A DNA stretch of 37,660 bases from an uncultured Methanosarcinales archaeon (lineage in GTDB: Archaea; Nanobdellota; Nanobdellia; Woesearchaeales; GW2011-AR9): positions 1 to 37,660 of the forward strand of contig CAZCXW010000006.1 in assembly GCA_964502785.1 (NCBI GenBank), written 5' to 3'. Shown here piece after piece: positions 1-35,046 of the stretch. The translations under genes and the position numbers were made by a program. The notes below the pieces were generated by a model, which searched no databases, had not been told where the DNA came from, and saw only the letters and a list, made by a program, of their open reading frames with translations. Each line of letters begins with the position of its first letter. Within the stretch, counting starts at the first letter, position 1.

Positions 1-265
1 CATTGGTTTCTATTGTGTAAATTAGTCTCCAAGCATTAGGGAGATCATATTTCCAAAGATTTGTTATACTGTATTTTTGAATGTACTCTTTTGGCCAAAG
101 ATTTTTTTGAATTTTTATCCCGCAGGTTGGATCTGCTTTGAGATCATCGATCGCTCTGTCAATAAATTTGTAAAGTTGTTTGTCTTCAAATTTACCCTCT
201 TTAAGGGCTTCCCATTCCTGCTTAATTTTTGGAGTAATAAAAGCTACGTGGATTTGTTTGTTCAT
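1..265 (-). CDS. RelE/ParE-superfamily toxin, first 88 codons (gene runs off the window start)
   Basis: Absent from the ORF track because there is no stop in the window. My reverse-strand translation from the ATG at 265-263 is MNKQIHVAFITPKIKQEWEALKEGKFEDKQLYKFIDRAIDDLKADPTCGIKIQKNLWPKEYIQKYSITNLWKYDLPNAWRLIYTIETN. The NLWKYDLP..WRLIYTI block is typical of RelE/ParE toxins. There is an ATGA start/stop overlap with the upstream ORF. Confidence 0.6.
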   Translation of the reverse strand, partial: MNKQIHVAFITPKIKQEWEALKEGKFEDKQLYKFIDRAIDDLKADPTCGIKIQKNLWPKEYIQKYSITNLWKYDLPNAWRLIYTIETN

Positions 266-528
266 CGCACCATTAAATCCTCCCTAAGTAATCTCTTTAT
301 TCTTGCAGGATTAAACGTCCAAATAATACAACCCTCTTTATCTATAATTATTTTTCCTGATTGTTCAAGGTAATCTAAAATTACTTGGAATGTTTGATAC
401 ATCATTTTTTTAGGAAGCTTTTTCCAGAGTTGATACTTACCGAATTCTTGGCTATACTTTTGGATAGTTTCCTCTACCATAAAGACGGATTCTAGGGTTG
501 GACTATGTAAAATTGTCGCTTCTTGCAT
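262..528 (-). CDS. small putative antitoxin / winged-helix-like protein
   Basis: 88-aa ORF whose stop overlaps the toxin ATG (ATGA at 262-265). It sits directly upstream of the RelE-like ORF. The fold assignment is a guess from QTFQVILDYLEQSGKIIIDKEG. Confidence 0.4.
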   Translation of the reverse strand: MQEATILHSPTLESVFMVEETIQKYSQEFGKYQLWKKLPKKMMYQTFQVILDYLEQSGKIIIDKEGCIIWTFNPARIKRLLREDLMVR

Positions 529-595
529 GTTATATAACTATATATAAGAATTCTATTTAAAGCTTTTGCTTGTTTTTGTCAGATTTTGTGCTAAA

Positions 596-860
596 TTACA
601 ACTTTTGTAGTTCTTCAGAGGTATATGGTTTTTCTTTTTGCATTTTCTTAATTTTATTAATGATATACTTTAATGCAAAAACATCATCTTTATTATACCC
701 TTGAAGTTTTTTAATTACTTTTTTATTTTTAGATTTGATATACTCATTATAGATAAAAGGTGCATCAAAACCATTAGTATCTTGATGTTTCCACTGGAAT
801 CCCAAAAAATCACCAAGTTTTTTTAGTTTGTATGTTGATATGTGGAGTGACCCCCTAGTT
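596..860 (-). pseudogene. C-terminal remnant of an RNase H-like (YprB / RNase_H_2-type) exonuclease domain protein
   Basis: The stop-to-stop frame reads ..SLHISTYKLKKLGDFLGFQWKHQDTNGFDAPFIYNEYIKSKNKKVIKKLQGYNKDDVFALKYI.., matching only the last third of that domain (sysLK..lG, dG..a, YN.DDv.aL). There is no ATG, only a TTG, and an upstream in-frame TAA at about 861-863. Confidence 0.4.
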
Positions 861-1000
861 TAAGTTAAGTAGTATCTGAGTCAAGAACTATTTCATTTTT
901 TCTATTCGAAAGAAGCACTTTCCGTGACTTCTCGCTTTTAATCTCATCCATGAAACACAAAGCCTTTTAAAACCATAGATATTCCGTTGATGTAATGCCC

Positions 1001-1043
1001 ATGAAATCACTGTTTCACTGTGTGTGATGGGTGTTTTTGACAC
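1001..1043 (+). repeat. intergenic repeat family, 3' half copy (TTTCACTGTGTGTGATGGGTGTTTTTGACAC)
   Basis: Aligns with 5351..5388 and with the reverse complement of 2427..2464. A weaker match extends upstream to about 905. It ends about 20 nt before the site-2 protease ATG. Confidence 0.6.
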
Positions 1044-1064
1044 GAAAGAACTTTACTAAAACAT

Positions 1065-2168
1065 ATGAATGGAAACGCAACGTTATTCCGCATTTTTGGG
1101 ATTGAGATACGAATCCATTACAGCTGGTGGCTTATTTTCATTCTCCTGACATGGAGCTTGGCAACAGCCTTCTTCCCAGTGAATTTTCCAGTATCCAAAA
1201 TGCAGGCATGGATTTTAGGTCTCGTATCGGCTTTGCTTCTATTTCTTTCCGTACTTCTCCACGAATTAAGCCATTCGCTTGTTGCGAAAGCAAAAAAAAT
1301 TCGCGTGGAAAATATTACCTTATTTTTCTTTGGCGGCGTGGCTGGCATCACGGAAGAAGACATGCCTCCAGCATCAGAATTTGTCATGGCCGTGGCCGGA
1401 CCCTTATTCTCGCTCTTCCTCTCGGGCTTATTTTACATCCTTTTTAGGGCAAACATCCATTTATTCGTCACTGCCGCAGCTTTGTATTTATACCAAATAA
1501 ACTTCATGTTGGCAGTATTTAACCTTCTTCCGGGCTTTCCGCTCGATGGTGGAAGAGCCTTCCGCGCTCTTCTCTTTTCGTATTACCATGATCTAGAGAA
1601 AGCGACACGGATTGCCGCAAATGTAGGGCGGGCACTGGCAGGCGCACTTTTCGTTATTGGGATGATCAACCTTTTTCGGGGTTCAGGCAATAGTTTATGG
1701 CTCATTCTCATCGGTGGTTTTTTGTACTTCATCGCTGGAGTAAGTTATGAGCAAGTGTTGATTAAGAAAATGTTAGCGCCAATTTCTCTTCGTGAATTAC
1801 TGATAAAGATACCCGTTCTCAACCCGGAACTAAGACTTCAAGAATTTGCTGTAAAATGGAGGAAAAGCGAGAATTCTCTTTTTCTCGTCAAAAATAAAAC
1901 ATTTGCCGGAATTCTCGAAATCAACCAATTGCAGAGTTTTTCTCCAAAATTGCAAGAGGCAATAAAAGTAAAAAACATTTCCAAGCCTCTCGAGACATTT
2001 CCTCGTTTGCAAAAAAATGAAACAGCCTATAAAGCATTCCAGATTTTATCCAAACAAAGCGGCGATGCCTTGCCTCTCTTTGAGAAAAATCATTTTATTG
2101 GAATGGTAACCCGACAGCAATTGCAGAGACGATTGCAATGGGAATTGAAGTTCAGAGGGAAAAGTTAA
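1065..2168 (+). CDS. M50 site-2 protease with C-terminal CBS pair
   Basis: HELSH (HExxH) in a TM helix, the NLLPGFPLDGG motif, several TM segments, and C-terminal CBS-like repeats (FAGILEINQL, FIGMVTRQQL). Confidence 0.9.
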   Translation: MNGNATLFRIFGIEIRIHYSWWLIFILLTWSLATAFFPVNFPVSKMQAWILGLVSALLLFLSVLLHELSHSLVAKAKKIRVENITLFFFGGVAGITEEDMPPASEFVMAVAGPLFSLFLSGLFYILFRANIHLFVTAAALYLYQINFMLAVFNLLPGFPLDGGRAFRALLFSYYHDLEKATRIAANVGRALAGALFVIGMINLFRGSGNSLWLILIGGFLYFIAGVSYEQVLIKKMLAPISLRELLIKIPVLNPELRLQEFAVKWRKSENSLFLVKNKTFAGILEINQLQSFSPKLQEAIKVKNISKPLETFPRLQKNETAYKAFQILSKQSGDALPLFEKNHFIGMVTRQQLQRRLQWELKFRGKS

Positions 2169-2426
2169 TGGATTAAATCAAAAAAGCTACTCTAATCCTA
2201 CCAGATGAGGGCTATTTTCTTGTTTATCTTTTGCTCTTTCATATTTTGCTTTAATTGTTGTACAAACATCCGTATACAAAGTATCGAAGGTAATCGATTT
2301 TGTTATATCCTAAAAATCATTTGAAATCGAACATATTAATGATTTTTATATATATATAAAATGCGCTAAATAATGTTCGAATTCTAGCGTATTTTAGTAT
2401 ACTTTCTTTTGTGATTCTCGCCTTAT

Positions 2427-2514
2427 CTGTCAAAAACCACCCGTCAGACGCACAGTGAAACATAGATTTCACTGGCGCACAAGAAGCAGCGGCTTCTTTG
2501 TGGACAGGTGGCAT
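2427..2514 (-). repeat. intergenic structured repeat, best-folded 88-nt copy
   Basis: The reverse complement matches 5301..5388 at 73 of 88 positions without gaps (hand alignment). It folds as a closing stem CCACCUGUC/GACGGGUGG around two hairpins, followed by T5-GACA. Confidence 0.75.
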
Positions 2515-2546
2515 GACGTTCATAACGTCATGCAGAGTTTTTGAGC

Positions 2547-2746
2547 ACCCCAGAATTCCACTGGTGGAACACAAAGAAAAGGAAAAAAATCATGTCTTCA
2601 GAGAGGATATAACTGAAAGTTAATGCTTTTCTTGTGTCACAGAAATTCGCCTATCGATAAGAGCGTCTCTTTTCAAGTCATGCCTTTAGGGCATGGTAAA
2701 ATACTTTCGGCGAATTTCTCATGACACCAGTGGAATATCTGTGGTT
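2547..2746. repeat. nested inverted repeats (about 200-nt composite hairpin)
   Basis: ATTCCACTGGTG (2555-2566) and CACCAGTGGAAT (2725-2736) are perfect 12-bp arms. The inner arms are GTGTCACAGAAATTCGCC (2634-2651) and GGCGAATTTCTCATGACAC (2709-2727). The apex hairpin is CATGCCtttagGGCATG (2679-2695). Confidence 0.7.
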
Positions 2747-2820
2747 TTAAACCTTCAACCAATTTAAAAACAGGAAAACTTAAGTAGAAAATATAAAGTA
2801 ACGCTTTTTTTAGAACACTC

Positions 2821-3633
2821 ATGTACCTTGAGATAATAAAAATACTGAAAAAAAAGATCAATCATCATTATATTCATCTAACCTCCCGCGGCAATGCTGC
2901 CATAGAAACAGCCTTGTCTCTCCTGCCAAAAGGAAGCACAATCTTAGTTCCAGAAGAAGGCGGCTGGCTTACCTATAAAACTGCACCCCTGAAAATAGGA
3001 TTAAAAGTTGAAGAAGTAAAGTGCACTGATGCAAAACTCGAAATTGAAGATCTCCAAAAAAAATTACAATCAAAACAATATGCTGCTCTTCTCTATCAAA
3101 ATCCTGGCGGGTATCATGCTGAGCAGTCCTTTGAAGAAATCTATGAATTATGTCAAAGATATGGATGTTTAGTTATTCTTGATGTCTCAGGAAGCATTGG
3201 CACATCATTATGCGATGGAAGATTTGCAAATATCCTGGTGGGAAGTTTTGGCCGTTGGAAACCCGTAGATGCAGGAAAAGGGGGCTTTATTTCATGTAAA
3301 GAGAAAAGTATTTTCGAGAATATCCATACTCCAGAATTCAAAGACGAAATCATCTTAAAGAAAATCTATGAACAGTTACAACATCTTCCAGCTCGCTTAA
3401 AAATCCTAGAAGAAAAAAGAAAGAAAGTTCTAACAGACTTACGTGAATTTAAAATAATTAACACCGATAATTGGGGATTAGTTGTCATCATCGAATTTAA
3501 TTCCGAAGAAGAGAAAAATAAAATTATTCAATATTGTAAAGAACAGACATTAGAATGGACGGAATGCCCGAGGTACATTCGATTGAATAGGAAAGGCATC
3601 AGCATTGAAGTAAAAAGGATTGAAAATAAATGA
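2821..3633 (+). CDS. PLP-dependent (fold-type I, DegT/class-V-like) enzyme, short form
   Basis: LTSRGNAAIETALSLL..GSTILVPE resembles the S.GT.AL..AL..GDEVI.P pattern. The segment ILDVSGSIG..VGSFGRWKPVDAGKGGFI resembles the D-x-A and SF..K..GG lysine region. Confidence 0.5.
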   Translation: MYLEIIKILKKKINHHYIHLTSRGNAAIETALSLLPKGSTILVPEEGGWLTYKTAPLKIGLKVEEVKCTDAKLEIEDLQKKLQSKQYAALLYQNPGGYHAEQSFEEIYELCQRYGCLVILDVSGSIGTSLCDGRFANILVGSFGRWKPVDAGKGGFISCKEKSIFENIHTPEFKDEIILKKIYEQLQHLPARLKILEEKRKKVLTDLREFKIINTDNWGLVVIIEFNSEEEKNKIIQYCKEQTLEWTECPRYIRLNRKGISIEVKRIENK

Positions 3634-3944
3634 ATCCATTAGAATATATCCTGCAGCTGTACAAACGACAGCAAGAAGAAGGATTTGAAGAAACTTGTGG
3701 GCAGTTTGATATGATTACGAGTGATCCTCGGCCAAGTTATGCCGACGTTGTTTCAAAATTCCAAACTTTCGCCTTCACCCCGCTGGGGTTATATGTCATC
3801 TATGAGGGAATTGAAGCAATCGTGGAAGGGAATTCTAATTTAGGGAAAGGCGGGATAATTTTAGGCTTATATCTCGTTATCCGGGGGGCACTGCGAATTC
3901 CTCAGCAAATCCAGAGATATAGAAATTTCTCTGAACGGGAATGA
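3630..3944 (+). CDS. small membrane protein, unknown function
   Basis: ATGA overlap with the upstream gene and two hydrophobic segments (FAFTPLGLYVIYEGI, GGIILGLYLVIRGAL). Confidence 0.4.
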   Translation: MNPLEYILQLYKRQQEEGFEETCGQFDMITSDPRPSYADVVSKFQTFAFTPLGLYVIYEGIEAIVEGNSNLGKGGIILGLYLVIRGALRIPQQIQRYRNFSERE

Positions 3945-3998
3945 TCGTTCCTCCAAAAACCAAAAATATTTAAATCAGTTTTGTCATTCTATAGAATA

Positions 3999-4373
3999 AT
4001 GGCTTTTCGTATCCCTGAATCAATGAGCGAATGTTTGTATTTCACCAATAGAGGTGATACTCTTGCCTGGGTTTATCGTAAGGAGTGTCCAAAATGCCAC
4101 AAAGCAAAAATGGGCAAACCTGTCGTGAAAGGAAGTGTCAAAACAAGAGCTAAAGAGTACGTTTGCCCAAGTTGTGATTATGAGGAAAGTAAAGAGGTTC
4201 ACGAAGACAGTGTGCAAATCCAAGCCGTTTATACCTGTCCTAAGTGTGGAAAGAAAGGAGAATCAACAGCTCCCTATAAGAGGAAAAATTTCAAAGGAGT
4301 TCCTTCTTTTGTTGTTGACTGTCAGCATTGTGGTGAGAAAATACCCCTAACAAAGAAGTTGAAAGGGATTTAA
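3999..4373 (+). CDS. double zinc-ribbon protein, unknown function
   Basis: Four CxxC pairs (CPKC..CPSC, CPKC..CQHC). I prefer the ATG at 3999, with an AAATATTTAAAT TATA-like box about 25 nt upstream, over the track TTG at 3981. Confidence 0.5.
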   Translation: MAFRIPESMSECLYFTNRGDTLAWVYRKECPKCHKAKMGKPVVKGSVKTRAKEYVCPSCDYEESKEVHEDSVQIQAVYTCPKCGKKGESTAPYKRKNFKGVPSFVVDCQHCGEKIPLTKKLKGI

Positions 4374-4699
4374 TTTCTTTTCATAACATAAAGCATAGTT
4401 CTCACAATCTTTAAATGGTTACACTAAGAAACCAGAAAGCTCTGTGCTTTAGCACAGGGATGAACGGCTTTCTTTGTGTAAGAAAAAACTCTTGCAACAA
4501 CTAGATTCTCGGCAAGTTTTTAAACTCACTTCGTGCCACGTTGCACTTTCCTTACGCAGGCGAGTTATTTGATAGGATAATGTTACTCTCGTCTGCTTTG
4601 GTCAGGTCACTTAACAGCGATCGCATATGTTCAGTGAAATTTCTACTGGTGGGCATTTGAATAGATGTTTATATAAACTCATTCTTAATAGAGGTTACT

Positions 4700-5266
4700 A
4701 TGATTGAACCATTTGTTGCCGCTTTTACGCTGGCTTTAATATCTGAAATAGCTGATAAAACACAATTGGTCATTCTCGGATTAGCAATAAAATATAAATC
4801 TCCTTTCAGAGTATTTTCTGGAGCATTATTGGCTCATGCAGTTATGGATGGAATTGCTATTGTATTTGGTGCTTTTTTTGGTTTTTCATTATCATCAAGC
4901 TTAATCAAAAATGGAGTCGGTATTCTATTCATACTTTTAGGAATTTGGACTTTTGTTAAATCATATTTCAGGAAATCCAAGAAAGAAAACAAGGAAATTT
5001 TGAGCAAAACCATTTTAACAACTTCATTCCTAACAGTTTTACTTAGCGAATTTGGTGATAAAACACAAATAGCTTCTGGTTTATTAGCTGCCAAATATTT
5101 AGTGCCTATACCTATTTTTATTGGATTTGTTTCAGCGCTCGCAATAGCAATAGGATTAAATGTTTTTGTTGGCAGCAAAGTTGCAAGAGGAATTCCAAGA
5201 AAAACTATAAAAATTATAACGGCTATTCTCTTCATACTATTTGGAATATCTACCTTATTATTTTAA
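4700..5266 (+). CDS. GDT1/TMEM165 (UPF0016) family cation transporter
   Basis: Internal duplication carrying two E-x-(A/G)-D-K-T-Q motifs (SEIADKTQ, SEFGDKTQ), with about 6 TM segments. Confidence 0.85.
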   Translation: MIEPFVAAFTLALISEIADKTQLVILGLAIKYKSPFRVFSGALLAHAVMDGIAIVFGAFFGFSLSSSLIKNGVGILFILLGIWTFVKSYFRKSKKENKEILSKTILTTSFLTVLLSEFGDKTQIASGLLAAKYLVPIPIFIGFVSALAIAIGLNVFVGSKVARGIPRKTIKIITAILFILFGISTLLF

Positions 5267-5300
5267 CGTCCGCCCTTCGTAACTCTCGAAGAAAGATCAA

Positions 5301-5388
5301 TTGCCACCAGTTCACGAAGAAACTGCTGCTTCTTGTACGCTAGTGAAATTGCTGTTTCACTGTGTGTCTGACGGGTGATTTTTGATAT
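5301..5388 (+). repeat. intergenic structured repeat, second 88-nt copy
   Basis: See 2427..2514. It lies between convergent genes (GDT1 end at 5266, fur end at 5437). Confidence 0.75.
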
Positions 5389-5436
5389 TCTTAGGGATGC
5401 TGCGCTTTTGCTTCGCAAACCTTGCTTAACAGGAAT

Positions 5437-5835
5437 TTAGGGTTCGCTGCGTTTGGATATATTCTGTCTTTCAGCATATTTACATTCCCTGCAAATACCT
5501 TTGATATCAATTTGAAAATGACATATTTCCCCAGTTACAATCTCTTTGAGGAAATGCACATTCTTCAACGGCAAATGTTTCTTTCCGCCGCATTCTTCAC
5601 AGGTAAAATGAATATGGTTATTTTTGTTGAGAGAATATATTTTACGGTTTTCACAAAGATAGGAGTGAATTTCTCCTTTCTTTTCGATATCGTTGAGAAA
5701 ACGATAAACAGTGGCTATGCCTAAATGCAAATCTTTACCAGATATTCGGCTGTGAAATTCATAAGCATCAAAAAAAGTTGTCATTTTTTGCAATTCACCA
5801 TGCATAATTTTCTTTTGTTTTGTAAGTCGAGACAT
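5437..5835 (-). CDS. Fur-family metal-responsive transcriptional regulator
   Basis: N-terminal wHTH (IATVYRFLNDIEKKGEI) and two CxxC pairs (CEEC, CREC). It is divergent from a ZIP transporter. Confidence 0.8.
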   Translation of the reverse strand: MSRLTKQKKIMHGELQKMTTFFDAYEFHSRISGKDLHLGIATVYRFLNDIEKKGEIHSYLCENRKIYSLNKNNHIHFTCEECGGKKHLPLKNVHFLKEIVTGEICHFQIDIKGICRECKYAERQNISKRSEP

Positions 5836-5841
5836 CTTATT

Positions 5842-5860
5842 GATAATGAGAATCAGTAAT
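5842..5860. promoter_or_regulatory. Fur/Zur-box-like palindrome in the divergent fur-ZIP promoter region
   Basis: GATAATGAGAATCAGTAAT matches the classical Fur box GATAATGATAATCATTATC at 15 of 19 positions. It is directly followed by the TATA-like ATTTATAAAT (5861-5870), about 25 nt upstream of the ZIP ATG. Confidence 0.45.
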
Positions 5861-5891
5861 ATTTATAAATAGTTCTATCTGCATCAAAAAG

Positions 5892-6677
5892 ATGTCAGTT
5901 TTACTCTATACTCTTGTCAGTGTCCTGGTTGTTTCATTATTTTCGCTTATTGGCGTTACGGCATTGATTATCAGCAAGAAATCGTTAGAAAAATTTCTGC
6001 TCGTTTTGGTGAGCCTCTCTGCAGGAACATTATTTGGAGATGCGTTCATCCATTTATTGCCGGAAGCAGTGGAAGAACAAGGGGGATTCAGCTTTTTTTT
6101 AGCACTTATGACTCTGTTGGGAATTTTAGTGTTTTTTGTTATCGAACGCTTTATTCATCTGCAAAATACTTGTAAAGCGCCGCCTCTGCATAAACATGTA
6201 GAAGAATATCCTCTCCTTCACGAATCGCATAAGAAACATATCGGAGTTATGAACCTTGTCGGTGATGGATTGCACAACTTTACCGATGGTTTAATTATTG
6301 CTGTAAGTTATTTTGCAAGTATTCCTGCAGGGGTGGCGACGACATTTGCAGTTATCTTGCATGAAGTGCCGCAGGAGATTGCTGATTTTGGCGTTTTATT
6401 GTACGCTGGATTTTCCAGATGGAAGGCATTATTGCTGAATTTAGCTTCAGCGGGAACAGCAGTATTGGGAGCTGTTGTTGGGCTGGCTGCTGGAAAAGCT
6501 TCACACACTTTTATAGAATTTATATTGCCTTTTGCTGCCGGAGGATTTATCTACATTGCCGGCACAAATTTATTCCCTGAACTGCATAAAGAATGCAGCT
6601 GGAAAGATTCTTTCATTCATCTCCTTGCTCTCCTTGCTGGCATTGCGATTATGATTGCATTATTGTACATAGAATAA
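5892..6677 (+). CDS. zupT: ZIP-family divalent metal transporter (ZupT-like)
   Basis: HLLPEA, GDGLHNFTDG and LHEVPQEIADF motifs, with about 8 TM segments. Confidence 0.8.
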   Translation: MSVLLYTLVSVLVVSLFSLIGVTALIISKKSLEKFLLVLVSLSAGTLFGDAFIHLLPEAVEEQGGFSFFLALMTLLGILVFFVIERFIHLQNTCKAPPLHKHVEEYPLLHESHKKHIGVMNLVGDGLHNFTDGLIIAVSYFASIPAGVATTFAVILHEVPQEIADFGVLLYAGFSRWKALLLNLASAGTAVLGAVVGLAAGKASHTFIEFILPFAAGGFIYIAGTNLFPELHKECSWKDSFIHLLALLAGIAIMIALLYIE

Positions 6678-6907
6678 ATTCTATTTTTAATTTTAATACT
6701 TTTCTAAAGAGAACTTTGCAAAATTGATTTCCTGCTCTAAATTTACATGATTTTGCGAATAAATTGCAAAGTTATCTGTCAGAATTTTGAGTTTTTCAAA
6801 ATTCTCAATATTAAATTTTGACTGCTTTCACTTCGTATATCCTCCTCAGATCATTCTAAATCTCAAAAACTCTCGGTTGTTCTGATCTGCTTAATTTTTA
6901 GCAACAA

Positions 6908-7909: not shown

Positions 7910-8487
7910 TTAAAGCAATTATTTTTGATTGGGGCGGTGTACTAGCTCCAGCTGATACAGAAATTGCCGCAATGAAACTCTCTAAACAATATAGTTGCGA
8001 CTTTGACCTTCTTAAACAGAAAATAAATGCTTATGAGAAAGAATGTTCTGATGGTGAAGATTATTCATTATTTTTAAAGAAGATTCAACAAGAATTTAGA
8101 ATTCCCTCTGCTGAATTAATCAAAGCTTTAGTTGAAATTCCTCCCGGAGAAGGTCTAAATATTGCTCGGCAGCTATCTAAAAGATTGAAAAAGTGTATTC
8201 TTTCCAACCAAATGCAATTTAAAGCTGATTATATTAAAATGAATTACGATCTTTCTTTTTTTAATCATGTTTTATTTTCAAGTGAAATTGGTGTTCAAAA
8301 GCCTTCAGAAAAAGCATTTAAAATCATTCTAGATCGATTAAATGAATTGCCGATGAATTGTTTGTTTGTTGATGATAAACTTGAAAATATCCAGATTGCG
8401 CAAAAATTAGGATTTCAAGTAATTCTTTGTAAGAATATTAATATTTTAGAGAATGGAATAAAAAAAGTTACAAAAGAATCTATTTAA
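7906..8487 (+). CDS. HAD-superfamily hydrolase (subfamily IA-like)
   Basis: IIFDWGGVL (motif I variant) and LFVDDKLENI (motif IV). ATGA overlap with the kinase gene. Confidence 0.7.
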   Translation: MIKAIIFDWGGVLAPADTEIAAMKLSKQYSCDFDLLKQKINAYEKECSDGEDYSLFLKKIQQEFRIPSAELIKALVEIPPGEGLNIARQLSKRLKKCILSNQMQFKADYIKMNYDLSFFNHVLFSSEIGVQKPSEKAFKIILDRLNELPMNCLFVDDKLENIQIAQKLGFQVILCKNINILENGIKKVTKESI

Positions 8488-9367
8488 CCACAATCTTGCT
8501 GTCCTGCGTGCTCATAATTCCATCAACAATAATACACGTTCCAGGTTTCGTAAATGTCCATTCGAATTTCTCTCCGGTTTTGAACGTTTTGCTGCGGACT
8601 TCACGGCAGCTGCGCACGCCAATAATCATCCCTTGCCCAACTTTTCCGGAACGGACAAGCTCCCAAGTAACCGTATCTCCTGCTTTAATCTCCAAAACTT
8701 TCGGATCAAAACCTATCTCCGTCATCATCACTTGATGTTTCTCCGTTCTTTTCGTTTCGGGAAGGACTCCCTCCGTTTCCTTTGTTTTTTCTTGCTGTTC
8801 TCCTTCCGTTTTCTGCTCTTCTTTTTTAACTTCTACAGATACTTTTTCCTCCGCGGGTTCTACTTTGGCGACAACATTACTCGTAATCGTGGATCCCTCA
8901 GAAGCCTCTTTAGAAGAAGTATCTTCTTTTTCTTTGGTAAAGAAACTTGTGACACGCAAGGCTAAAGAAGCGAAAGTAAATTTAATTTTATTTCCAAGTC
9001 CCATTACATTATATGTAATTTTTTTTGACTTTAATGCATCCTGGAAGGCGGTTAATGGATTTTCAGCACTCATAATTGTTTCAATGACAACTTGTTCCAC
9101 ATATACTTTTAATGTTGGCTTTTCCACTCCTTTGTCATTAACTTCAGCAAGAATTCCATCTTCCGTGACGATTCCATATGTTGATTCCTGGCCACCAGTC
9201 CTACTAATATAAATGTTAATGCGCTGATCCCCAAATAAAGGTCTGGCAAACGATGGCAATTCCGCTCCTTTCGCTATTTCTTCAGGCAAAAGTGTTTGCG
9301 GCGCTTCAGCAATCACAAAAGAGCTGATTATTATTATACTGAATATGAAAACGATTAATTTTCTCAT
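8480..9367 (-). CDS. secreted/anchored protein with C-terminal cupredoxin-like domain lacking Cu ligands
   Basis: I prefer the start MRKLIVFIFSIIIISSFVIAEA (signal/anchor) at 9367. There is an E/K-rich linker. The C-terminus LEIKAGDTVTWEL...FTKPGTCIIVDGIMS follows the cupredoxin pattern, but both His ligands are absent. Confidence 0.45.
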   Translation of the reverse strand: MRKLIVFIFSIIIISSFVIAEAPQTLLPEEIAKGAELPSFARPLFGDQRINIYISRTGGQESTYGIVTEDGILAEVNDKGVEKPTLKVYVEQVVIETIMSAENPLTAFQDALKSKKITYNVMGLGNKIKFTFASLALRVTSFFTKEKEDTSSKEASEGSTITSNVVAKVEPAEEKVSVEVKKEEQKTEGEQQEKTKETEGVLPETKRTEKHQVMMTEIGFDPKVLEIKAGDTVTWELVRSGKVGQGMIIGVRSCREVRSKTFKTGEKFEWTFTKPGTCIIVDGIMSTQDSKIVVK

Positions 9368-9441
9368 ATTGTTCTTGTAAGAAAAATAATGATTATAAAT
9401 GTTTCGATAGTCAGACTCTTTCACAGCAATCGAGATATAAA

Positions 9442-12437: not shown

Positions 12438-12530
12438 TCACTTTTCGTCTTGGAAGTTATCTATTTAAGTTTTATGATGATAGACAGTTAACTTAAAGGC
12501 AGCCAGACTGAGGTATTATAAAGATTCATT

Positions 12531-12596
12531 TATACTAAAATGCGTTAGAATGTCAAAAATCACCCAGATATTTGATATCTAATGATTTTTAGTATA
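12531..12596 (-). repeat. mini-copy of the intergenic repeat with 10-bp terminal inverted repeats
   Basis: TATACTAAAA (12531-12540) and TTTTAGTATA (12587-12596) flank TGTCAAAAATCACCC. The reverse complement GGGTGATTTTTGACATTCTAACGCATTTTAGTATA matches 25846..25886. Confidence 0.6.
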
Positions 12597-12633
12597 CAAG
12601 CAACTTATAGTGAGAGCTTTTTCTATTTCTGTT

Positions 12634-16900: not shown

Positions 16901-17029
16901 GGGGAAAAGAAAATGAAGAAATTTATAAAGATTGTTGTTTGGGACGTGGGAAGTGAAATGATTAGTACTTGATGTACATACTCCCTCTATGTACAAAGGC
17001 AGATGCAAATAAATAGAAATCTACATTCA

Positions 17030-17290
17030 TTATCGACTTGTAAAGTATGAATCAACTATTTTCGCCAATTGAGAATCTTCAACTCGTAATGTTACTAACT
17101 TGCCACGTCCTGATACTTCAAAAGTAGAAAACCGGCTACAATCATCAAAACCAGAAGAACTTCCATCGTCAATAGTATTAACATTCATTCCGCGATACCC
17201 ATGAGTATGATATTTACCTTCTTCTATTAAATGTTCAACAAGTGCATCAAATTCTCCTCTAAGCAGTTGATATTCAACGATTCTTTTCAT
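17030..17290 (-). CDS. hypothetical small protein
   Basis: 86-aa ORF co-oriented with sppA. No recognisable motifs. Confidence 0.35.
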   Translation of the reverse strand: MKRIVEYQLLRGEFDALVEHLIEEGKYHTHGYRGMNVNTIDDGSSSGFDDCSRFSTFEVSGRGKLVTLRVEDSQLAKIVDSYFTSR

Positions 17291-17381
17291 ACAACTATTT
17301 TCGTGGTGATACTATTTTAACATTTATATCTTAAGAAATAGATAACAAGAAACAAGAGAGCGTCCGTTTATTTGGTTAGTA

Positions 17382-17605
17382 CTGTCAAAGAAAACCGTCC
17401 ACCACCGGTCAGAGACCTGGTGGCACAAAGAAATGTTCGCATTTCTTGTGCAAGAAATCAACAGATTTCTTTGCATGCTCGCTTTGCTCGGGGCGGTTTT
17501 CTGACTCACAAAAACATTGTTTTTGGATCCAAAAGCCAGAGCTTTTTGGCTCCCAGAATTTTCCAAGATGAAACCACCTGTCTAAGACTGGTGGAAAATT
17601 CTGTG
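17382..17605 (-). repeat. hairpin-cluster copy of the intergenic repeat family
   Basis: Shares in the same order with 2427..2567: CTGTCAAA, CCACC(G/C)GTCAGA, a CACAAAGAA..TTCTTGTG hairpin, CCCAGAATT and ACTGGTGGAA. Six hairpins were read by eye (17402-17423, 17424-17450, 17451-17473, 17529-17549, 17554-17603 enclosing 17574-17594). Confidence 0.65.
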
Positions 17606-17714
17606 ATTTTAATATTACAAACAGTGCTTAGAATGAATTATGTCTAATTTAGAAATCCCGAGATTGATAAAATAGAGATAGATACCATGTTCAATTTAAG
17701 AGCCCGAGTAATAT

Positions 17715-24031: not shown

Positions 24032-24051
24032 AGAGTTTTGATAAGTTCTCT

Positions 24052-24794
24052 TTAGATAATGATGAAAGTTTCTTTATCTACATTTCTTACCCCAGCAACA
24101 AAATGCGGTAATTCTAAGTTTCTCTGATAGCGACAGGCAATCAAAATATCCTCCTGACTAAAACCTTGGGCAAGGGGTTTGGATTGCGGGTGAACATGAT
24201 AATAACCAATTACTCTTTCTTTTTTGAAACGTGCTTTTTCATCGTTTAGGAAGTCTGGAACAAGATGATCGTGGTAACAGAACTGTGGGCCGTAGATGTC
24301 TGGCGTTGGATTTGCCGCAATTTTTCTGCGGTTGCCGGTTTGATTAGTCCTCTTTCATTCAAAAAACAACTCATTCCCTGAGGGAGCTTAAATCGTCCTG
24401 ACTGGTGATTTTTTTCGGTATAGCTTCTTAACTCATTTTCTACGCATAATTTCAAGAAAAAATGAAGTATATCAGTTGCCGCTCTTGCTAACAATCCTTC
24501 AGGCTTTGGACGCGATAATTCTCCTAAAGAATGACTCACCTCTATAAGAGTATCATGCACTTCCAGTGTATATCTTTCAGGAGGAACATAAAAAAAAACG
24601 GCTCGGGAAGAGGCATTAATAGGATCTAAGAAATGGGTAATCATAGCTTCATCATTTTTGATTTCTCCGCATAAAAAAAGGTCCTGTTCAACGCCGTATC
24701 GTTGACTTCTTTTTCTTACTCCTTCCAGTTCTTCTCGTACAGCATCATTGATATTTATAATAACTTTTCTTTGCAAGTCTATGTTGCGTGTCAT
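24052..24794 (-). pseudogene. JAB/MPN-type metalloprotease gene disrupted by a -1 frameshift
   Basis: The 182-aa N-terminal ORF (VEQDLFLCGEI, Glu region) stops at 24246. The -1 frame is open from 24354 to 24052 with no usable start. It encodes ..ERVIGYYHVHPQSKPLAQGFSQEDIL.., an HxH..S..D JAMM motif. Confidence 0.5.
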
Positions 24795-24929: not shown

Positions 24930-25637
24930 ATGTTTGAAAAATTGATTCATATTGGACTTACGGCTACCGAGGCAAAGATTTATGTCGTGTTGCTGGACAT
25001 CACAAAGGCTCAGGCGGGTGTCCTTTCTCGCAAGACGGGAATCCATCGCAGGAGTGTTTATGATGCTTTAGACCGTTTAATAGAGAAAGGGCTTGTAAGC
25101 TATATTGTGGAAAATGGCAAGCGCTATTATGTGGCCGCCGATCCAAAGCGGGTACAGGATTTAATTGATGAAAAACGTCAAGAAATTTATGATCTTCTCC
25201 CAATGCTCCATGCCAAATTTTTTGAACATAAAGAGAAACAAGAAACTGTTTTTTATCGTGGAAAAGAAGGAATTAAAACAGTCTATGACAATCAAATCGC
25301 TACGGGCAAGGCGATTTACATCATCGGCGCCCGCGAAGAGGAACAAAAAGTATTTCCATCTTATTTCCTTCATTTTACAAAGAGGCGTCTTGCAGCGAAA
25401 ATAAAGATTTATGCCATCTGCTCCGGTTTGAAGTGTCAAAAGACACTGCCTCTTCTAGAAGCACGTTATCTTCCTGCTTCTTTTTCTACTTTAGTGTCGA
25501 CAGCAATCTATGGGCAAAAAGTGGCAATCATACTTTGGCTGCCTCACGATCCTGTTGTAATTGTAGTTCAACAACAGGATATTGCCAAAACTTTTCAGAA
25601 TTATTTTGATTTGTTGTGGGAAGTAGCGGAGAAATGA
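24930..25637 (+). CDS. TrmB-family transcriptional regulator
   Basis: GLTATEAKIYVVLLDITKAQAGVLSRKTGIHRRSVYDALDRLIEKGLV is a typical TrmB N-terminal wHTH. I prefer the ATG at 24930. Confidence 0.8.
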   Translation: MFEKLIHIGLTATEAKIYVVLLDITKAQAGVLSRKTGIHRRSVYDALDRLIEKGLVSYIVENGKRYYVAADPKRVQDLIDEKRQEIYDLLPMLHAKFFEHKEKQETVFYRGKEGIKTVYDNQIATGKAIYIIGAREEEQKVFPSYFLHFTKRRLAAKIKIYAICSGLKCQKTLPLLEARYLPASFSTLVSTAIYGQKVAIILWLPHDPVVIVVQQQDIAKTFQNYFDLLWEVAEK

Positions 25638-25689
25638 GGTAGTTTTTGACACAGTCTAATAATTATTAATAAAGAACAATTATTAATTA

Positions 25690-25781
25690 CGAGCCTGCCC
25701 GGATTCGAACCGGGGTTTGCGGGTGTCTTTAAGCTTAGCTTTCCGAAGCCCGCCGTCCTATCCAGGCTAGACTACAGGCCC
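25690..25781 (-). tRNA. tRNA-Arg (anticodon UCG) with an 18-nt intron at position 37/38
   Basis: Hand-folded cloverleaf. Acceptor stem GGGCCUG/CAGGCUC, D stem GUCU/GGAC, anticodon stem GCGGG/CCCGC with loop CUUCGG^A, and T arm CCCGG-UUCGAAU-CCGGG. Discriminator G and no encoded CCA. The intron is at 25725-25742 (AAAGCUAAGCUUAAAGAC). 74 nt plus 18 nt gives 92 nt. Confidence 0.85.
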
Positions 25782-25826
25782 ACAAAAGGTATAATTAATG
25801 GGCGTTATAAAAAACTTTTGATTCGT

Positions 25827-25886
25827 TGTGTGATACTTGCTATTTGGACATTGATTTTTGACATTCTAGTGCATTTTAGTATATAT
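25827..25886 (+). repeat. partial copy of the intergenic repeat (3' tail plus TTCTAGTGCATTTTAGTATATA)
   Basis: TGTGTGATAC...CATTGATTTTTGACATTCTAGTGCATTTTAGTATATA matches the reverse complement of 12531..12567 and the tails of 5361..5388 and 1021..1043. Confidence 0.55.
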
Positions 25887-30324: not shown

Positions 30325-30343
30325 AGAGATGTTATTTGGTTTT

Positions 30344-30399
30344 ATGCAAAAAATTTCGCAGGGTTTAAAACCCCGTCCTTTAGGGCGAAATTTTTGCAT
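30344..30399. other. 15-bp-stem hairpin
   Basis: ATGCAAAAAATTTCGC (30344-30359) pairs with GCGAAATTTTTGCAT (30385-30399) with a one-base bulge. The loop contains GGGTTTAAAACCC. Confidence 0.7.
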
Positions 30400-30402
30400 G
30401 CT

Positions 30403-30479
30403 AAAAATGCGTAGTTGAGAAACCGCCTCTTTTGAAACCTCGCCATTTATGGCGAGGTGAGGCGGTTTCACGCATTTTT
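30403..30479. other. 77-nt nested hairpin with 29 perfect base pairs
   Basis: The three paired segments are AAAAATGCGT/ACGCATTTTT, GAAACCGCCTC/GAGGCGGTTTC and ACCTCGCC/GGCGAGGT. It lies between the convergent cdc48 and aminopeptidase genes. It could be a terminator, an sRNA or a MITE. Confidence 0.7.
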
Positions 30480-30588
30480 ATCATTTCTGGATATTGTAAC
30501 ATTTTGATAATAATCATATAATTAAAACCACGTGTGTTTCTGTTTAGGTTCTAAAAAAACACATGGCTTTCTGGTTTCTTTGTGTAAT

Positions 30589-31602
30589 TCAAACGCAATA
30601 TTTCCCATCCTCAAACACTTTTGTCTCACCGATAAATACCCTCCTCACTAAACAAAATATGTCCAAATGGTACTTCTGCAGCACTTTCTTGCTTATCTTC
30701 TTCCGATACATTGCATGCTTCAGACCAAGGGAAAAATGCATCCCGCAGAAACGTTCAAAGGCAGTAGGTTCATTGATCCGATGATTAAATCCAAGAGCAC
30801 GATTCAGGCCAAAACCAATTTCACGAACCTGTACTTTTCCTCCTTCCTCACCACGAATCATATCAATTATTCTTGCAAACTCATCAGGTCCGCTATGATC
30901 AACTAAACACCCATCTTTAATTGTTACAACAAATGGTTGGCAAAAATGTGTTTGATGGTCAATTGTGGGAAAACCAAAAACAACAACAGAACCATTTAAT
31001 CCTTCTAATGATTTCGCTTCCGTAAATAATTCTCCAATGGGAAAACCGCTCGATGCACTTACACTCTGCGAAAAATCTCCCGTATTTTTTATTGGTTTTT
31101 CAAATTCCGATGAAATCGTGAGAAGTTCATCTTTTCCAGATTCAACTCGAACAACAGTATTCATTGCCAATAATTTCTCTACTTGTTCGCAGGTTGAAAC
31201 ATAATAAGGCGTATCATAGCGTAAAGAATTTACATAATTTTCTATTTGTTCAGGAGTATTGTAAGATAAACGCGCATGCTCAATTACCCGATGTCCCATC
31301 CTAAATAAATCGGCGCGTAAGCGATACTTGGTTGAACGAAACGACAGACTCTCTACTAAAATAATAAGAGAATGAGCAGGGAGAGCAGAAAAAGTTTTGA
31401 TCAAATCATCTTCTGTGATAATATCAAAATCAATTGCTTCAAAAGAATATCCTTGCAGAGCAGTACGATATCCTTCTTCCATAAGTTTCGACAGTGGACT
31501 TTCCCGATCATAAACTAATAATGCAAATTGTCCTGCCTTAAATTGGTAATTTTTCTCAATAATATATTTAAGGTGTTGCTGCAAGGTGCTTTGTAAATCC
31601 AT
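30589..31602 (-). CDS. M29 (AmpS/aminopeptidase T-like) aminopeptidase
   Basis: GFPIGELFTEA..LNGSVV, REIGFGLNRAL, ERFCGMHFSLG and HLDIF...IGETKVFEDGKY follow the M29 pattern as I recall it. Confidence 0.6.
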   Translation of the reverse strand: MDLQSTLQQHLKYIIEKNYQFKAGQFALLVYDRESPLSKLMEEGYRTALQGYSFEAIDFDIITEDDLIKTFSALPAHSLIILVESLSFRSTKYRLRADLFRMGHRVIEHARLSYNTPEQIENYVNSLRYDTPYYVSTCEQVEKLLAMNTVVRVESGKDELLTISSEFEKPIKNTGDFSQSVSASSGFPIGELFTEAKSLEGLNGSVVVFGFPTIDHQTHFCQPFVVTIKDGCLVDHSGPDEFARIIDMIRGEEGGKVQVREIGFGLNRALGFNHRINEPTAFERFCGMHFSLGLKHAMYRKKISKKVLQKYHLDIFCLVRRVFIGETKVFEDGKYCV

Positions 31603-34568: not shown

Positions 34569-35027
34569 ATGCATCAAAACTTCCATATTTATCATGAAGC
34601 TGAAAAAATCGCGTGTGAGATACTTAACTCTCCAAATTTACCAATACCTTCTCCCAGTTGGAAGAAAGATTTTAAGCGAGTGGATCATAGTGATTATGAT
34701 TTAGTAAATAGTCAATGTAAGCGTATTGAAGTTAAATCAACCTTACAGTGGAAGCAGTTCTCAGCGAACGCAACAAGGTTTAATTCAGAGTGGCAACGGA
34801 TCCAAGTCATAATGAAACAATTGTTAGATAGTGATGGTAAAGTACTGATGTTTAAATTTGTTATAAAACAGAAAGAGAAATGGTATAATGCCACCCAGTT
34901 AGTACTAGGAGAAGGTCCTTTGTATGAAAATTCTTCAGAGATGAGAATACCTTATATTGCTGTGCGAAGAGATGCACAAAATAATTTTACTTTTGATATG
35001 AACCATTGGTGGCTTTTTAGAACCTAA
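34569..35027 (+). CDS. PD-(D/E)xK nuclease-fold protein (Hjc/restriction-endonuclease-like)
   Basis: An N-terminal helix with Glu (HEAEKIACEIL), then DYDLVNSQCKRIEVKS, which fits D-x(11)-E-x-K. At 152 aa its length and layout resemble archaeal Hjc-type resolvases. Confidence 0.4.
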   Translation: MHQNFHIYHEAEKIACEILNSPNLPIPSPSWKKDFKRVDHSDYDLVNSQCKRIEVKSTLQWKQFSANATRFNSEWQRIQVIMKQLLDSDGKVLMFKFVIKQKEKWYNATQLVLGEGPLYENSSEMRIPYIAVRRDAQNNFTFDMNHWWLFRT

Positions 35028-35046
35028 ACAGAAACATTAAGATTCT

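Follow-up and report, generated by a model that had tools for sequence, protein, structure and literature searches.

Structured non-coding sequences between genes have been described in several forms, some of which come close to the element considered here. The bacterial REP, BIME and REPIN sequences are short imperfect extragenic palindromes that often lie just past stop codons, in both orientations; their units are combined in varying orders into mosaics, and they can stabilise or terminate upstream transcripts. MITEs, such as the Correia, ERIC and BOX elements and the SM elements of Sulfolobus, are likewise small, non-coding, structured and intergenic, are missing at the orthologous sites of relatives, occur as internally deleted or truncated derivatives, and can carry terminator or promoter activity. 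Further points of comparison are the hairpin plus oligo-U terminators together with the oligo-T terminators of archaea, in which a stable helix and a run of U mark a transcript end; the archaeal sRNA genes, whose predicted start is preceded by a TATA box at a distance of about 26 nt and whose structured body lacks a credible ORF and ends in oligo-T; and the attC sites of integrons, imperfect palindromes immediately 3' of an acquired gene.

The window, i.e. the whole stretch of DNA that was analysed, is one contig of 37,660 nt from an uncultured Woesearchaeota-type (DPANN) archaeon. It contains an 88-nt module in two full copies (A and B) and one partial copy (C), and the features listed above can be found at these copies to differing degrees. 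Copy B is an imperfect palindrome 3' of an apparently acquired gene (GDT1) and lies in sense orientation to it, copy A ends a putatively promoter-bearing unit that converges on the gene for an M50 site-2 protease, and in both the predicted closing stem is followed by U5, with nothing in between in A but with one additional base in B (A at 5378). However, the element differs from REP and BIME sequences in that it resides in an archaeon, has no RAYT-type transposase in sight, is visible in few copies, shows no sequence similarity to them, and forms a three-way junction instead of a single hairpin or hairpin pair. Unlike MITEs, it has neither clear terminal inverted repeats beyond a 9-bp stem nor a target-site duplication or partner transposase, one of its copies carries a host promoter, and the copies are clustered. 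When compared to terminators, the 80-nt junction is far larger than a terminator hairpin, and copy C resides in a 5' leader; archaeal terminators are U4-U7 tracts that need no hairpin (PMC8716108), and most genes of the window have bare T-runs. In contrast to archaeal sRNA genes, the element lacks homologs, both among relatives and in Rfam, as well as covariation, and its palindromes are equal on both strands. With respect to attC sites, the R''/R' cores and IntI are absent, and GDT1 occurs in seven other contigs without such a site.

The element, real but overstated in its first description, is best filed with the small structured intergenic repeats and terminator-like modules. It does not look like a conserved RNA family but like locally duplicated, hairpin-rich non-coding DNA of one DPANN lineage, and the reading that we tentatively prefer, with a probability of about 0.4, is that of local DNA duplications of a lineage-specific non-coding unit, the 88-nt module being its structured oligo-T 3' end.

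The 88-nt repeat and its copies

Since the best homolog of the M50 protease of the window is 57% identical (annotated as Candidatus Woesearchaeota) and none of eleven other window proteins on record has a 90%-identity cluster mate, no close relative of this archaeon is on record. In genes of the window the ATG is typically preceded by a TATA box at about 26 nt, a spacing that is consistent with leaderless mRNAs. Bare T5-T7 runs, located 4-30 nt past the stop codon, form the ends of many genes, and most genes of the window stop at such runs without any hairpin. Among the predicted proteins of the window (37.6 kb, Pfam scan) no product of a transposase, integrase, reverse transcriptase or orc1/cdc6 gene was found.

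A preliminary description had reported that the reverse complement of 2427-2514 (copy A) corresponds to 5301-5388 (copy B) at 73 of 88 positions without gaps, and this was reproduced in full (15 differences; E = 6e-20, i.e. about 1e-20, by BLAST within the window; 84 nt at 86% by repeat search). Also recovered was the three-way junction as first drawn, the MFE fold of copy A comprising a 9-bp stem and two hairpins and then UUUUUGACA (Table 1). The homology between A and B runs beyond the closing stem through TTTTTGAYA, and in B 11 nt further; all copies end with GGGTG-N-TTTTTGAYA. Only copy A has a significant fold, with z ranging from about -6 to -7.6 (-50.3 kcal/mol and z = -6.1 in a 116-nt context), whereas the fold of copy B does not stand out from that of shuffled sequences (z = -1.2 to -1.4). 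Three of the differences between A and B fall into the loop of hairpin 2 and one into the AAA run in which hairpin 1 has its bulge, as had been claimed; the second stem, said to be identical, is not quite so, its first pair being C-G in A and U-G in B.

A covariance model (R1), built from A and B and used to scan the window with filters off, gives 115 bits for A, 106 bits for B and 18.7 bits for copy C (939-1045), and nothing comparable in the other 33 kb. Copy C is also detected by BLAST (E = 1e-5 and 1e-6 in two runs) and consists of two pieces, of which 966-997 matches 2751-2720 (32 nt, 84%) and 997-1042 matches 2476-2428, so that C equals A minus 2719-2477 (243 nt). It folds no better than background. 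Repeat search, BLAST and covariance model all show a homology of A, B and C that chance would not produce by a wide margin. The three copies are confined to 4.4 kb, a clustering that, with one contig of the genome searched, may be a sampling effect.

Six further copies had been listed originally, of which 1001-1043 is real but partial (997-1042), whereas the remaining five are other things. At 17382-17605 only short hairpin modules are common to the element (about 14 bits for two adjacent hairpins at 17422-17476, E about 0.04); 12531-12596 and 25827-25886 match the 3' flank (GGGTG-N-TTTTTGACA plus the TATACTAAAAT motif) and not the junction; 25636-25654 is merely the 9-mer TTTTTGACA; and 4631-4668 belongs to the conserved upstream region of GDT1, for which seven foreign contigs have a homologous counterpart although none of them contains the element. 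The similarity of copy B to this upstream region amounts to matches of 12-13 nt and was judged to be due to chance.

Copy A is the 3' domain of a larger unit that extends over about 290-315 nt on the minus strand (2741/2722 to 2428) and is composed almost entirely of nested Watson-Crick hairpins. The whole unit reaches z = -10.9 and -9.7 on the two strands (about -10 on both), and 341 nt of the minus strand (2420-2760) fold at -126 kcal/mol with z = -8.1. Ordinary DNA between genes, both in the window and in seven related loci, has z values from +2 to -3.5, and the only outliers are the A unit, 17382-17605 (about -6) and 30325-30588 (about -7). As judged from position, a TATA box upstream and the T5 end enclose a non-coding body in which no ORF has homologs. 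The promoter module of A is a copy of that of M50 (965-997), to which it is 84% identical over 32 nt (966-997). From the TATA centre to the ATG the distance is 26 nt in A as well as in C, a spacing that is common at window genes.

Table 1. Coordinates of the repeat copies, of the unit around copy A and of associated features in the window
Feature	Position	Strand	Details
Copy C locus	965..1064	+	BLAST, covariance model, alignment with relative L001
Copy C, putative native M50 promoter	965-972 (TTTTAAAA), ATG 995-997	+	
Copy C insert, 67 nt	998-1064	+	hairpin-2 remnant, GAUGGGUG, T5 1034-1038, GACA, TATACTAAAA-like motif
Palindromic TATACTAAAAT-type motif pair	2303..2401		3' flank of copy A; M50 and the A unit converge on it from either side
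Copy A, three-way junction plus T5	2432..2511	-	MFE fold, z = -7.6 (80 nt), covariance model 114.8 bits
Copy A closing stem	2511-2503 / 2445-2437	-	9 bp, CCACCUGUC/GACGGGUGG
Copy A hairpin 1	2502-2478	-	CACAAAGAAGC-cgcu-GCUUCUUGUG
Copy A hairpin 2	2474-2453	-	CAGUGAAAU-cuau-GUUUCACUG
Copy A T5	2436-2432	-	GACA 2431-2428 just outside
10-bp perfect hairpin GCAUGACGUU-aug-AACGUCAUGC	2511..2533	-	directly 5' of copy A; not in B or C
A-tract UCAAAAAC	2537..2544	-	predicted pairing with T-tract GUUUUUGA (2437-2430), enclosing the 3' domain (MFE)
5' domain of unit	2551..2741	-	16-bp helix 2741-2725 / 2566-2551 around nested hairpins; z = -6.8 / -8.2
Putative promoter module	2720..2751	-	TTTAAAA 2751-2745; ATG 2722-2720, 26 nt after TATA centre
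Second TATA-like box TTTTTAAAT	2770-2762	-	
Copy B, degraded	5304..5387	+	covariance model 106.2 bits, z = -1.4
Copy B closing stem	5304-5312 / 5370-5378	+	
Copy B hairpins	5313-5337 and 5341-5362	+	
Copy B T5	5379-5383	+	GATA 5384-5387
Flank motif as 72-nt palindrome	12528..12599		about 70 nt after stop of 1105-aa gene
Hyper-structured gene-free stretch	17382..17605	+	224 nt, -83 kcal/mol, z = -6.2; gene-free interval 17009-17714
Two-copy inverted repeat	4419-4450 / 30556-30587		
Two-copy inverted repeat	6689-6723 / 24036-24070		
Two-copy inverted repeat	30535-30562 / 35009-35036		spans gap between ORF 34569-35027 and 145-aa ORF

Tests for selection on the fold

The pattern of differences had been described as one that a structure-constrained RNA or a hairpin-dependent mobile element would show. 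Structural constraint is not borne out by the comparison of A and B. Among the seven substitutions in stems none is compensatory, three are wobble-compatible and four break a pair; of the 28 pairs of the junction not one is changed on both sides, and all four breaks are in B, in a comparison of two sequences that has low power. Because about half of random helix transitions give wobble pairs, three wobble-compatible changes out of seven equal the neutral expectation. The two strands of the A junction fold about equally (-35.7 versus -39.0 kcal/mol), and the stems are therefore Watson-Crick palindromes without the signature of an RNA strand. Differences between A and B affect 12.5% of the paired and 25% of the unpaired positions, a contrast which, with n = 15, is not significant.

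In line with the remark that the element could be assigned to no known RNA family, a search of Rfam 15 with the window at gathering thresholds returned only a tRNA at 25690-25781, and at permissive E values of up to 10 positions 1-6000 yielded noise, the best match being that of copy B to mir-194 (16 bits against a threshold of 52). A scan with R1 of nine Woesearchaeota loci (114 kb in total), the syntenic sites among them, gave no hit, and BLAST of the whole unit against four of the related loci (L001-L004) was empty. Exact core patterns had no occurrence in genome contigs, in metagenome contigs (two patterns) or in viral contigs (two patterns), the first of the genome scans having missed even the copies of the window itself, and a phage and plasmid search returned only one 47-nt chance match.

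That the element is non-coding and intergenic was upheld, as the overlapping ORFs have no Pfam hit that passes the curated cut-off and an 85-aa ORF has no homolog. A coding or pseudogene origin, for which there are only two weak Pfam hits (E = 0.08 and 0.21), was accordingly rejected. Three further candidates were also discarded: a hammerhead or other small ribozyme (core motifs absent, no Rfam match), the TR/VR pair of a diversity-generating retroelement (the 15 differences affect all base types and not adenines in particular, most of them being C/T and G/A transitions, and the window has no reverse transcriptase), and an integron attC site (RYYYAAC and GTTRRRY cores absent in A and B, no integrase in the window).

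A functional sRNA family, in which the junction is kept by selection and A, B and C are paralogs, either sRNA genes or sRNA-like 3' UTRs, with a role in trans or as ligands of a protein, could draw on the exceptional stability of A, set against the z values of other intergenic regions (+2 to -3.5), on its upstream TATA boxes and T5 end, and on hairpin 2, which is nearly unchanged between A and B while its loop holds 3 of the 15 differences. Nevertheless, given the lack of compensatory changes, the four pairs broken in B, the background-level folds of both B and C, the statistically indistinguishable rates of difference at paired and unpaired positions (15 changes), the absence of G-U-rich or strand-asymmetric stems, and the empty searches of Rfam and of 114 kb of related loci, we regard it as decidedly unlikely. 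It is also rather doubtful, and in our estimate quite improbable, that the unit of about 300 nt is a genuine new structured ncRNA, one of at least three hyper-structured RNAs (with 17382-17605 and 30325-30500) built from shared hairpin modules; were this so, modular RNAs would be built de novo and duplicated in a DPANN archaeon, with B and C as recent gene fragments.

Origin of the copies and a possible course of events

Related loci were collected by alignment of the M50 protein, with mostly bacteria among the matches listed and at least about seven usable Woesearchaeota loci. The spacer between M50 and the DegT-like gene (2821-3633 in the window) is 652 nt long here as opposed to 0-125 nt in five relatives, which identifies the A unit as a lineage-specific insertion. 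The 5' module common to A and C, TTT(T)AAAA with an ATG 26 nt on, has the same layout as the leaderless M50 promoter and start in the relative L001. Since the similarity of C to L001 includes bases upstream of the TATA box, whereas the homology of A to C reaches no further up than the TATA box and, after an interruption, sets in again at hairpin 2, the promoter is native at C and A carries the copy. The actual ATG of M50 is at 1065, 67 nt further on, behind the remnant of copy C. Of note, the gene at 8480-9424 (minus strand) is a homolog of the 286-aa gene that precedes M50 in L001, and its placement implies that the block from M50 to 8487 is inverted with respect to L001, with one breakpoint at the M50 promoter.

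The GDT1/TMEM165 gene together with about 62 nt of upstream promoter (4635-5277) has 86-91% DNA identity to seven contigs (L085-L091) that come from other groundwater samples and represent at least three gene contexts, none of which has the element. From its sequence, GDT1 looks like a recently transferred single-gene unit that has replaced a 65-aa gene of L001. Copy B lies 24-33 nt beyond the end of the shared segment (631-643 nt, promoter plus ORF), in the lineage-specific flank; it starts 37 nt past the GDT1 stop codon, and its T5, the first T5 run there, starts 113 nt past the stop. All three copies thus reside at lineage-specific junctions, namely copy A in the enlarged M50-DegT spacer, copy B at the edge of the acquired GDT1 segment, and copy C at the M50 promoter beside the inversion breakpoint. 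An origin as att duplicates of an RNA gene was rejected, as B and C both have the opposite orientation to A and the synteny of the intervening genes is conserved.

This distribution is also what functionless filler would leave, i.e. hairpin-prone DNA copied into rearrangement junctions by template switching in repair or replication, the fold of A then being that of a young palindrome; the near-perfect Watson-Crick stems, equal on both strands, and the decay of B and C would fit as well. However, the T5 and its flank are kept in three copies and occur again at 12551-12565, A is still fully paired while B has gained four breaks, and three hyper-structured units in 37 kb are many for chance by-products, which makes such an origin quite unlikely.

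According to the preferred reading of local duplication, the copies would have arisen via local DNA duplication or repair and not through selection on a conserved RNA fold. At first, the unit would have separated the M50 start codon from its native, leaderless promoter; promoter and unit might then have been copied, in inverted orientation, into the M50-DegT spacer to give copy A, the original unit might have lost 243 nt internally to become copy C, and the last 84 nt might have been copied beside the horizontally acquired GDT1 to give copy B, which would now be decaying. The order of these duplications and the deletion is inferred, the steps that lead to A and C being the simplest history.

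With respect to function, the sequence points to a structured, T-tract-terminated transcript end as the most likely nature of the element. It had been remarked that the T5 follows the junction, and this applies to all three copies, in the orientation of an archaeal transcript end, with a TATA box upstream in A and a stop codon upstream in B. The promoter and terminator roles of the A unit are suggested by position: RNA polymerase recruited to the duplicated TATA box would transcribe the unit from near 2722, or from 2740 if the second TATA box is used, the transcript would stop at the U5 of copy A, and the three-way junction upstream of it would leave a compact, nuclease-resistant 3' end. In copy B, the module might supply the first oligo-T stop for GDT1. 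Since the archaeal polymerase stops at U4-U7 without a hairpin, the role of the structure would be to modulate the 3' end or to shield it, but not to cause termination, and as most window genes stop at hairpin-free T5-T7 runs, the junction is not needed for termination. It is awkward for this reading that copy C puts a T5 between the M50 promoter and the M50 ATG, if T5 terminates efficiently.

If the reading holds, the locus would be a worked example of the growth of intergenic DNA in a reduced DPANN genome, in which a hairpin-rich unit entered the junction of promoter and start codon, was duplicated together with the promoter, and lent an oligo-T end to an acquired transporter gene. This would be of use for the annotation of terminators and promoters in such genomes but would introduce no new principle; it would carry more weight if the genome had many copies, which would make the element a repeat family of a type that, to our knowledge, has not been described in DPANN archaea, or if transcript data showed a stable RNA of about 300 nt.

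Recurrent hairpins and flank motifs in the window

The hyper-structured stretch at 17382-17605, for which Rfam has no match, is composed of modules (CCACCGGUC-aga-GACCUGGUGG, CACAAAGAAAUG-uucg-CAUUUCUUGUG and CCACCUGUC-uaa-GACUGGUGG) that are partly those of the element. The closing stem (CCACCNGTC/GACNGGTGG) recurs there as simple hairpins at 17402-17423 and 17574-17594, and the CCACCNGTC motif is enriched in the window (18 matches versus 7.0 ± 2.5 expected). The stem of hairpin 1 (CACAAAGAA/TTCTTTGTG) can be found at A, B, 17424-17473, 2570-2578, 4470-4478 and 30576-30584, with six of seven exact CACAAAGAA matches in gene-free structured DNA. Because the stems recur separately, the junction is a mosaic of palindromic units, and in the CCACCNGTC and CACAAAGAA stems the window does have recurrent extragenic palindromic units in mosaics as known from REP and BIME sequences. 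None of these hairpins occurs in 84 fetched loci.

The main rival of the preferred reading, and a serious one although we consider it unlikely, is a mobile palindromic element of MITE or REP type, or a BIME-like mosaic, whose transposase is encoded elsewhere, which lands between genes in either orientation and whose promoter or terminator effects are incidental. In addition to the enrichment of CCACCNGTC and the recurrence of the hairpin-1 stem, it would account for copies that lie in both orientations, always in non-coding DNA, variously truncated and with a common 3' end, for their absence from the syntenic sites of relatives, for the equal folding of both strands, as expected of DNA palindromes, and for further small repeat families in the window; the closing stem (CCACCTGTC/GACGGGTGG), which also stands alone at 17402-17423 and 17574-17594, could be a 9-bp imperfect terminal inverted repeat, past which, however, the homology of the copies continues. 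Against this reading, there is no transposase or integrase in 37.6 kb, no target-site duplication at A or B and at C only a possible 3-nt ATG repeat (995-997 and 1065-1067), the homology of A and C takes in a host promoter that a transposon with fixed ends would not carry, the copies are two full ones and one partial within 4.4 kb, and the exact-pattern scans of genome, metagenome and viral contigs are empty. More specifically, the window proteins contain no RAYT/Y1 transposase domain as would go with REP or BIME sequences, and neither TnpA nor TnpB of the IS200/IS605 type; a 130-aa protein has a weak zinc-ribbon match to Cas12f1-like_TNB (E = 0.003, below the cut-off). For local duplication, in turn, the recurrence of the CCACCNGTC and CACAAAGAA stems is a difficulty, as a dispersed repeat family fits it at least as well.

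Extremely improbable, by comparison, is a protein-binding site at the DNA level, e.g. an ORB-like site for Orc1/Cdc6 with cruciform-forming palindromes. Its appeal lies in TTCCAGTGGAA-like cores at 786-798, 2555-2568 and 2725-2738 that resemble the mini-ORBs of Pyrococcus (sequences for comparison from PMC1904270), three exact CCAGTGGAA matches standing against about 0.3 expected by chance according to our own estimate. However, Pfam reveals no orc1/cdc6 among the window proteins, the spacing from dyad to G-string of full ORBs is not kept, a single helix accounts for two of the three cores, which are simply its arms, no AT-rich unwinding element lies between the cores, and the cores are outside the 88-nt element. 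A replication origin was rejected on the same grounds (orc1/cdc6 absent, ORB spacing wrong, cores of mini-ORB-like type only). The first of these cores, TTTCCACTGGAAT (786-798), a near-perfect match to Pyrococcus mini-ORB cores, lies within a 69-aa ORF (596-805, minus strand) that matches only the C-terminal third of RNase_H_2 (PF13482) and is probably a gene fragment.

The 3' flank of the element has a distribution of its own. The palindrome at 12528-12599 encloses GGGTGATTTTTGACA (12565-12551, minus strand), which equals the last 15 nt of the element. A motif family, TATACTAAAAT(G/A)CG(C/T)TAGAAT, is present at 2303-2401, 12528-12599 and 25852-25886, mostly as palindromic pairs just past stop codons and joined to TTTTTGACA; one arm near 25789-25812 overlaps the promoter of a tRNA gene. 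This gene (25690-25781, minus strand) is 92 nt long with an intron, scores 50.4 bits in Rfam, was missed by ARAGORN, and has TTTTTGACA on either side.

A third hyper-structured stretch, at 30325-30500, has z of -7 to -10 and consists of nested palindromes flanked by A- and T-tracts; it lies between a CDC48-like gene and the gene at 30589-31602, which converge. Finally, there are three more two-copy inverted repeat families in or beside intergenic DNA (28-35 nt, 80-93% identity; Table 1), and the 145-aa ORF beside the repeat at 35009-35036 matches only the C-terminal half of a queuosine-salvage domain.
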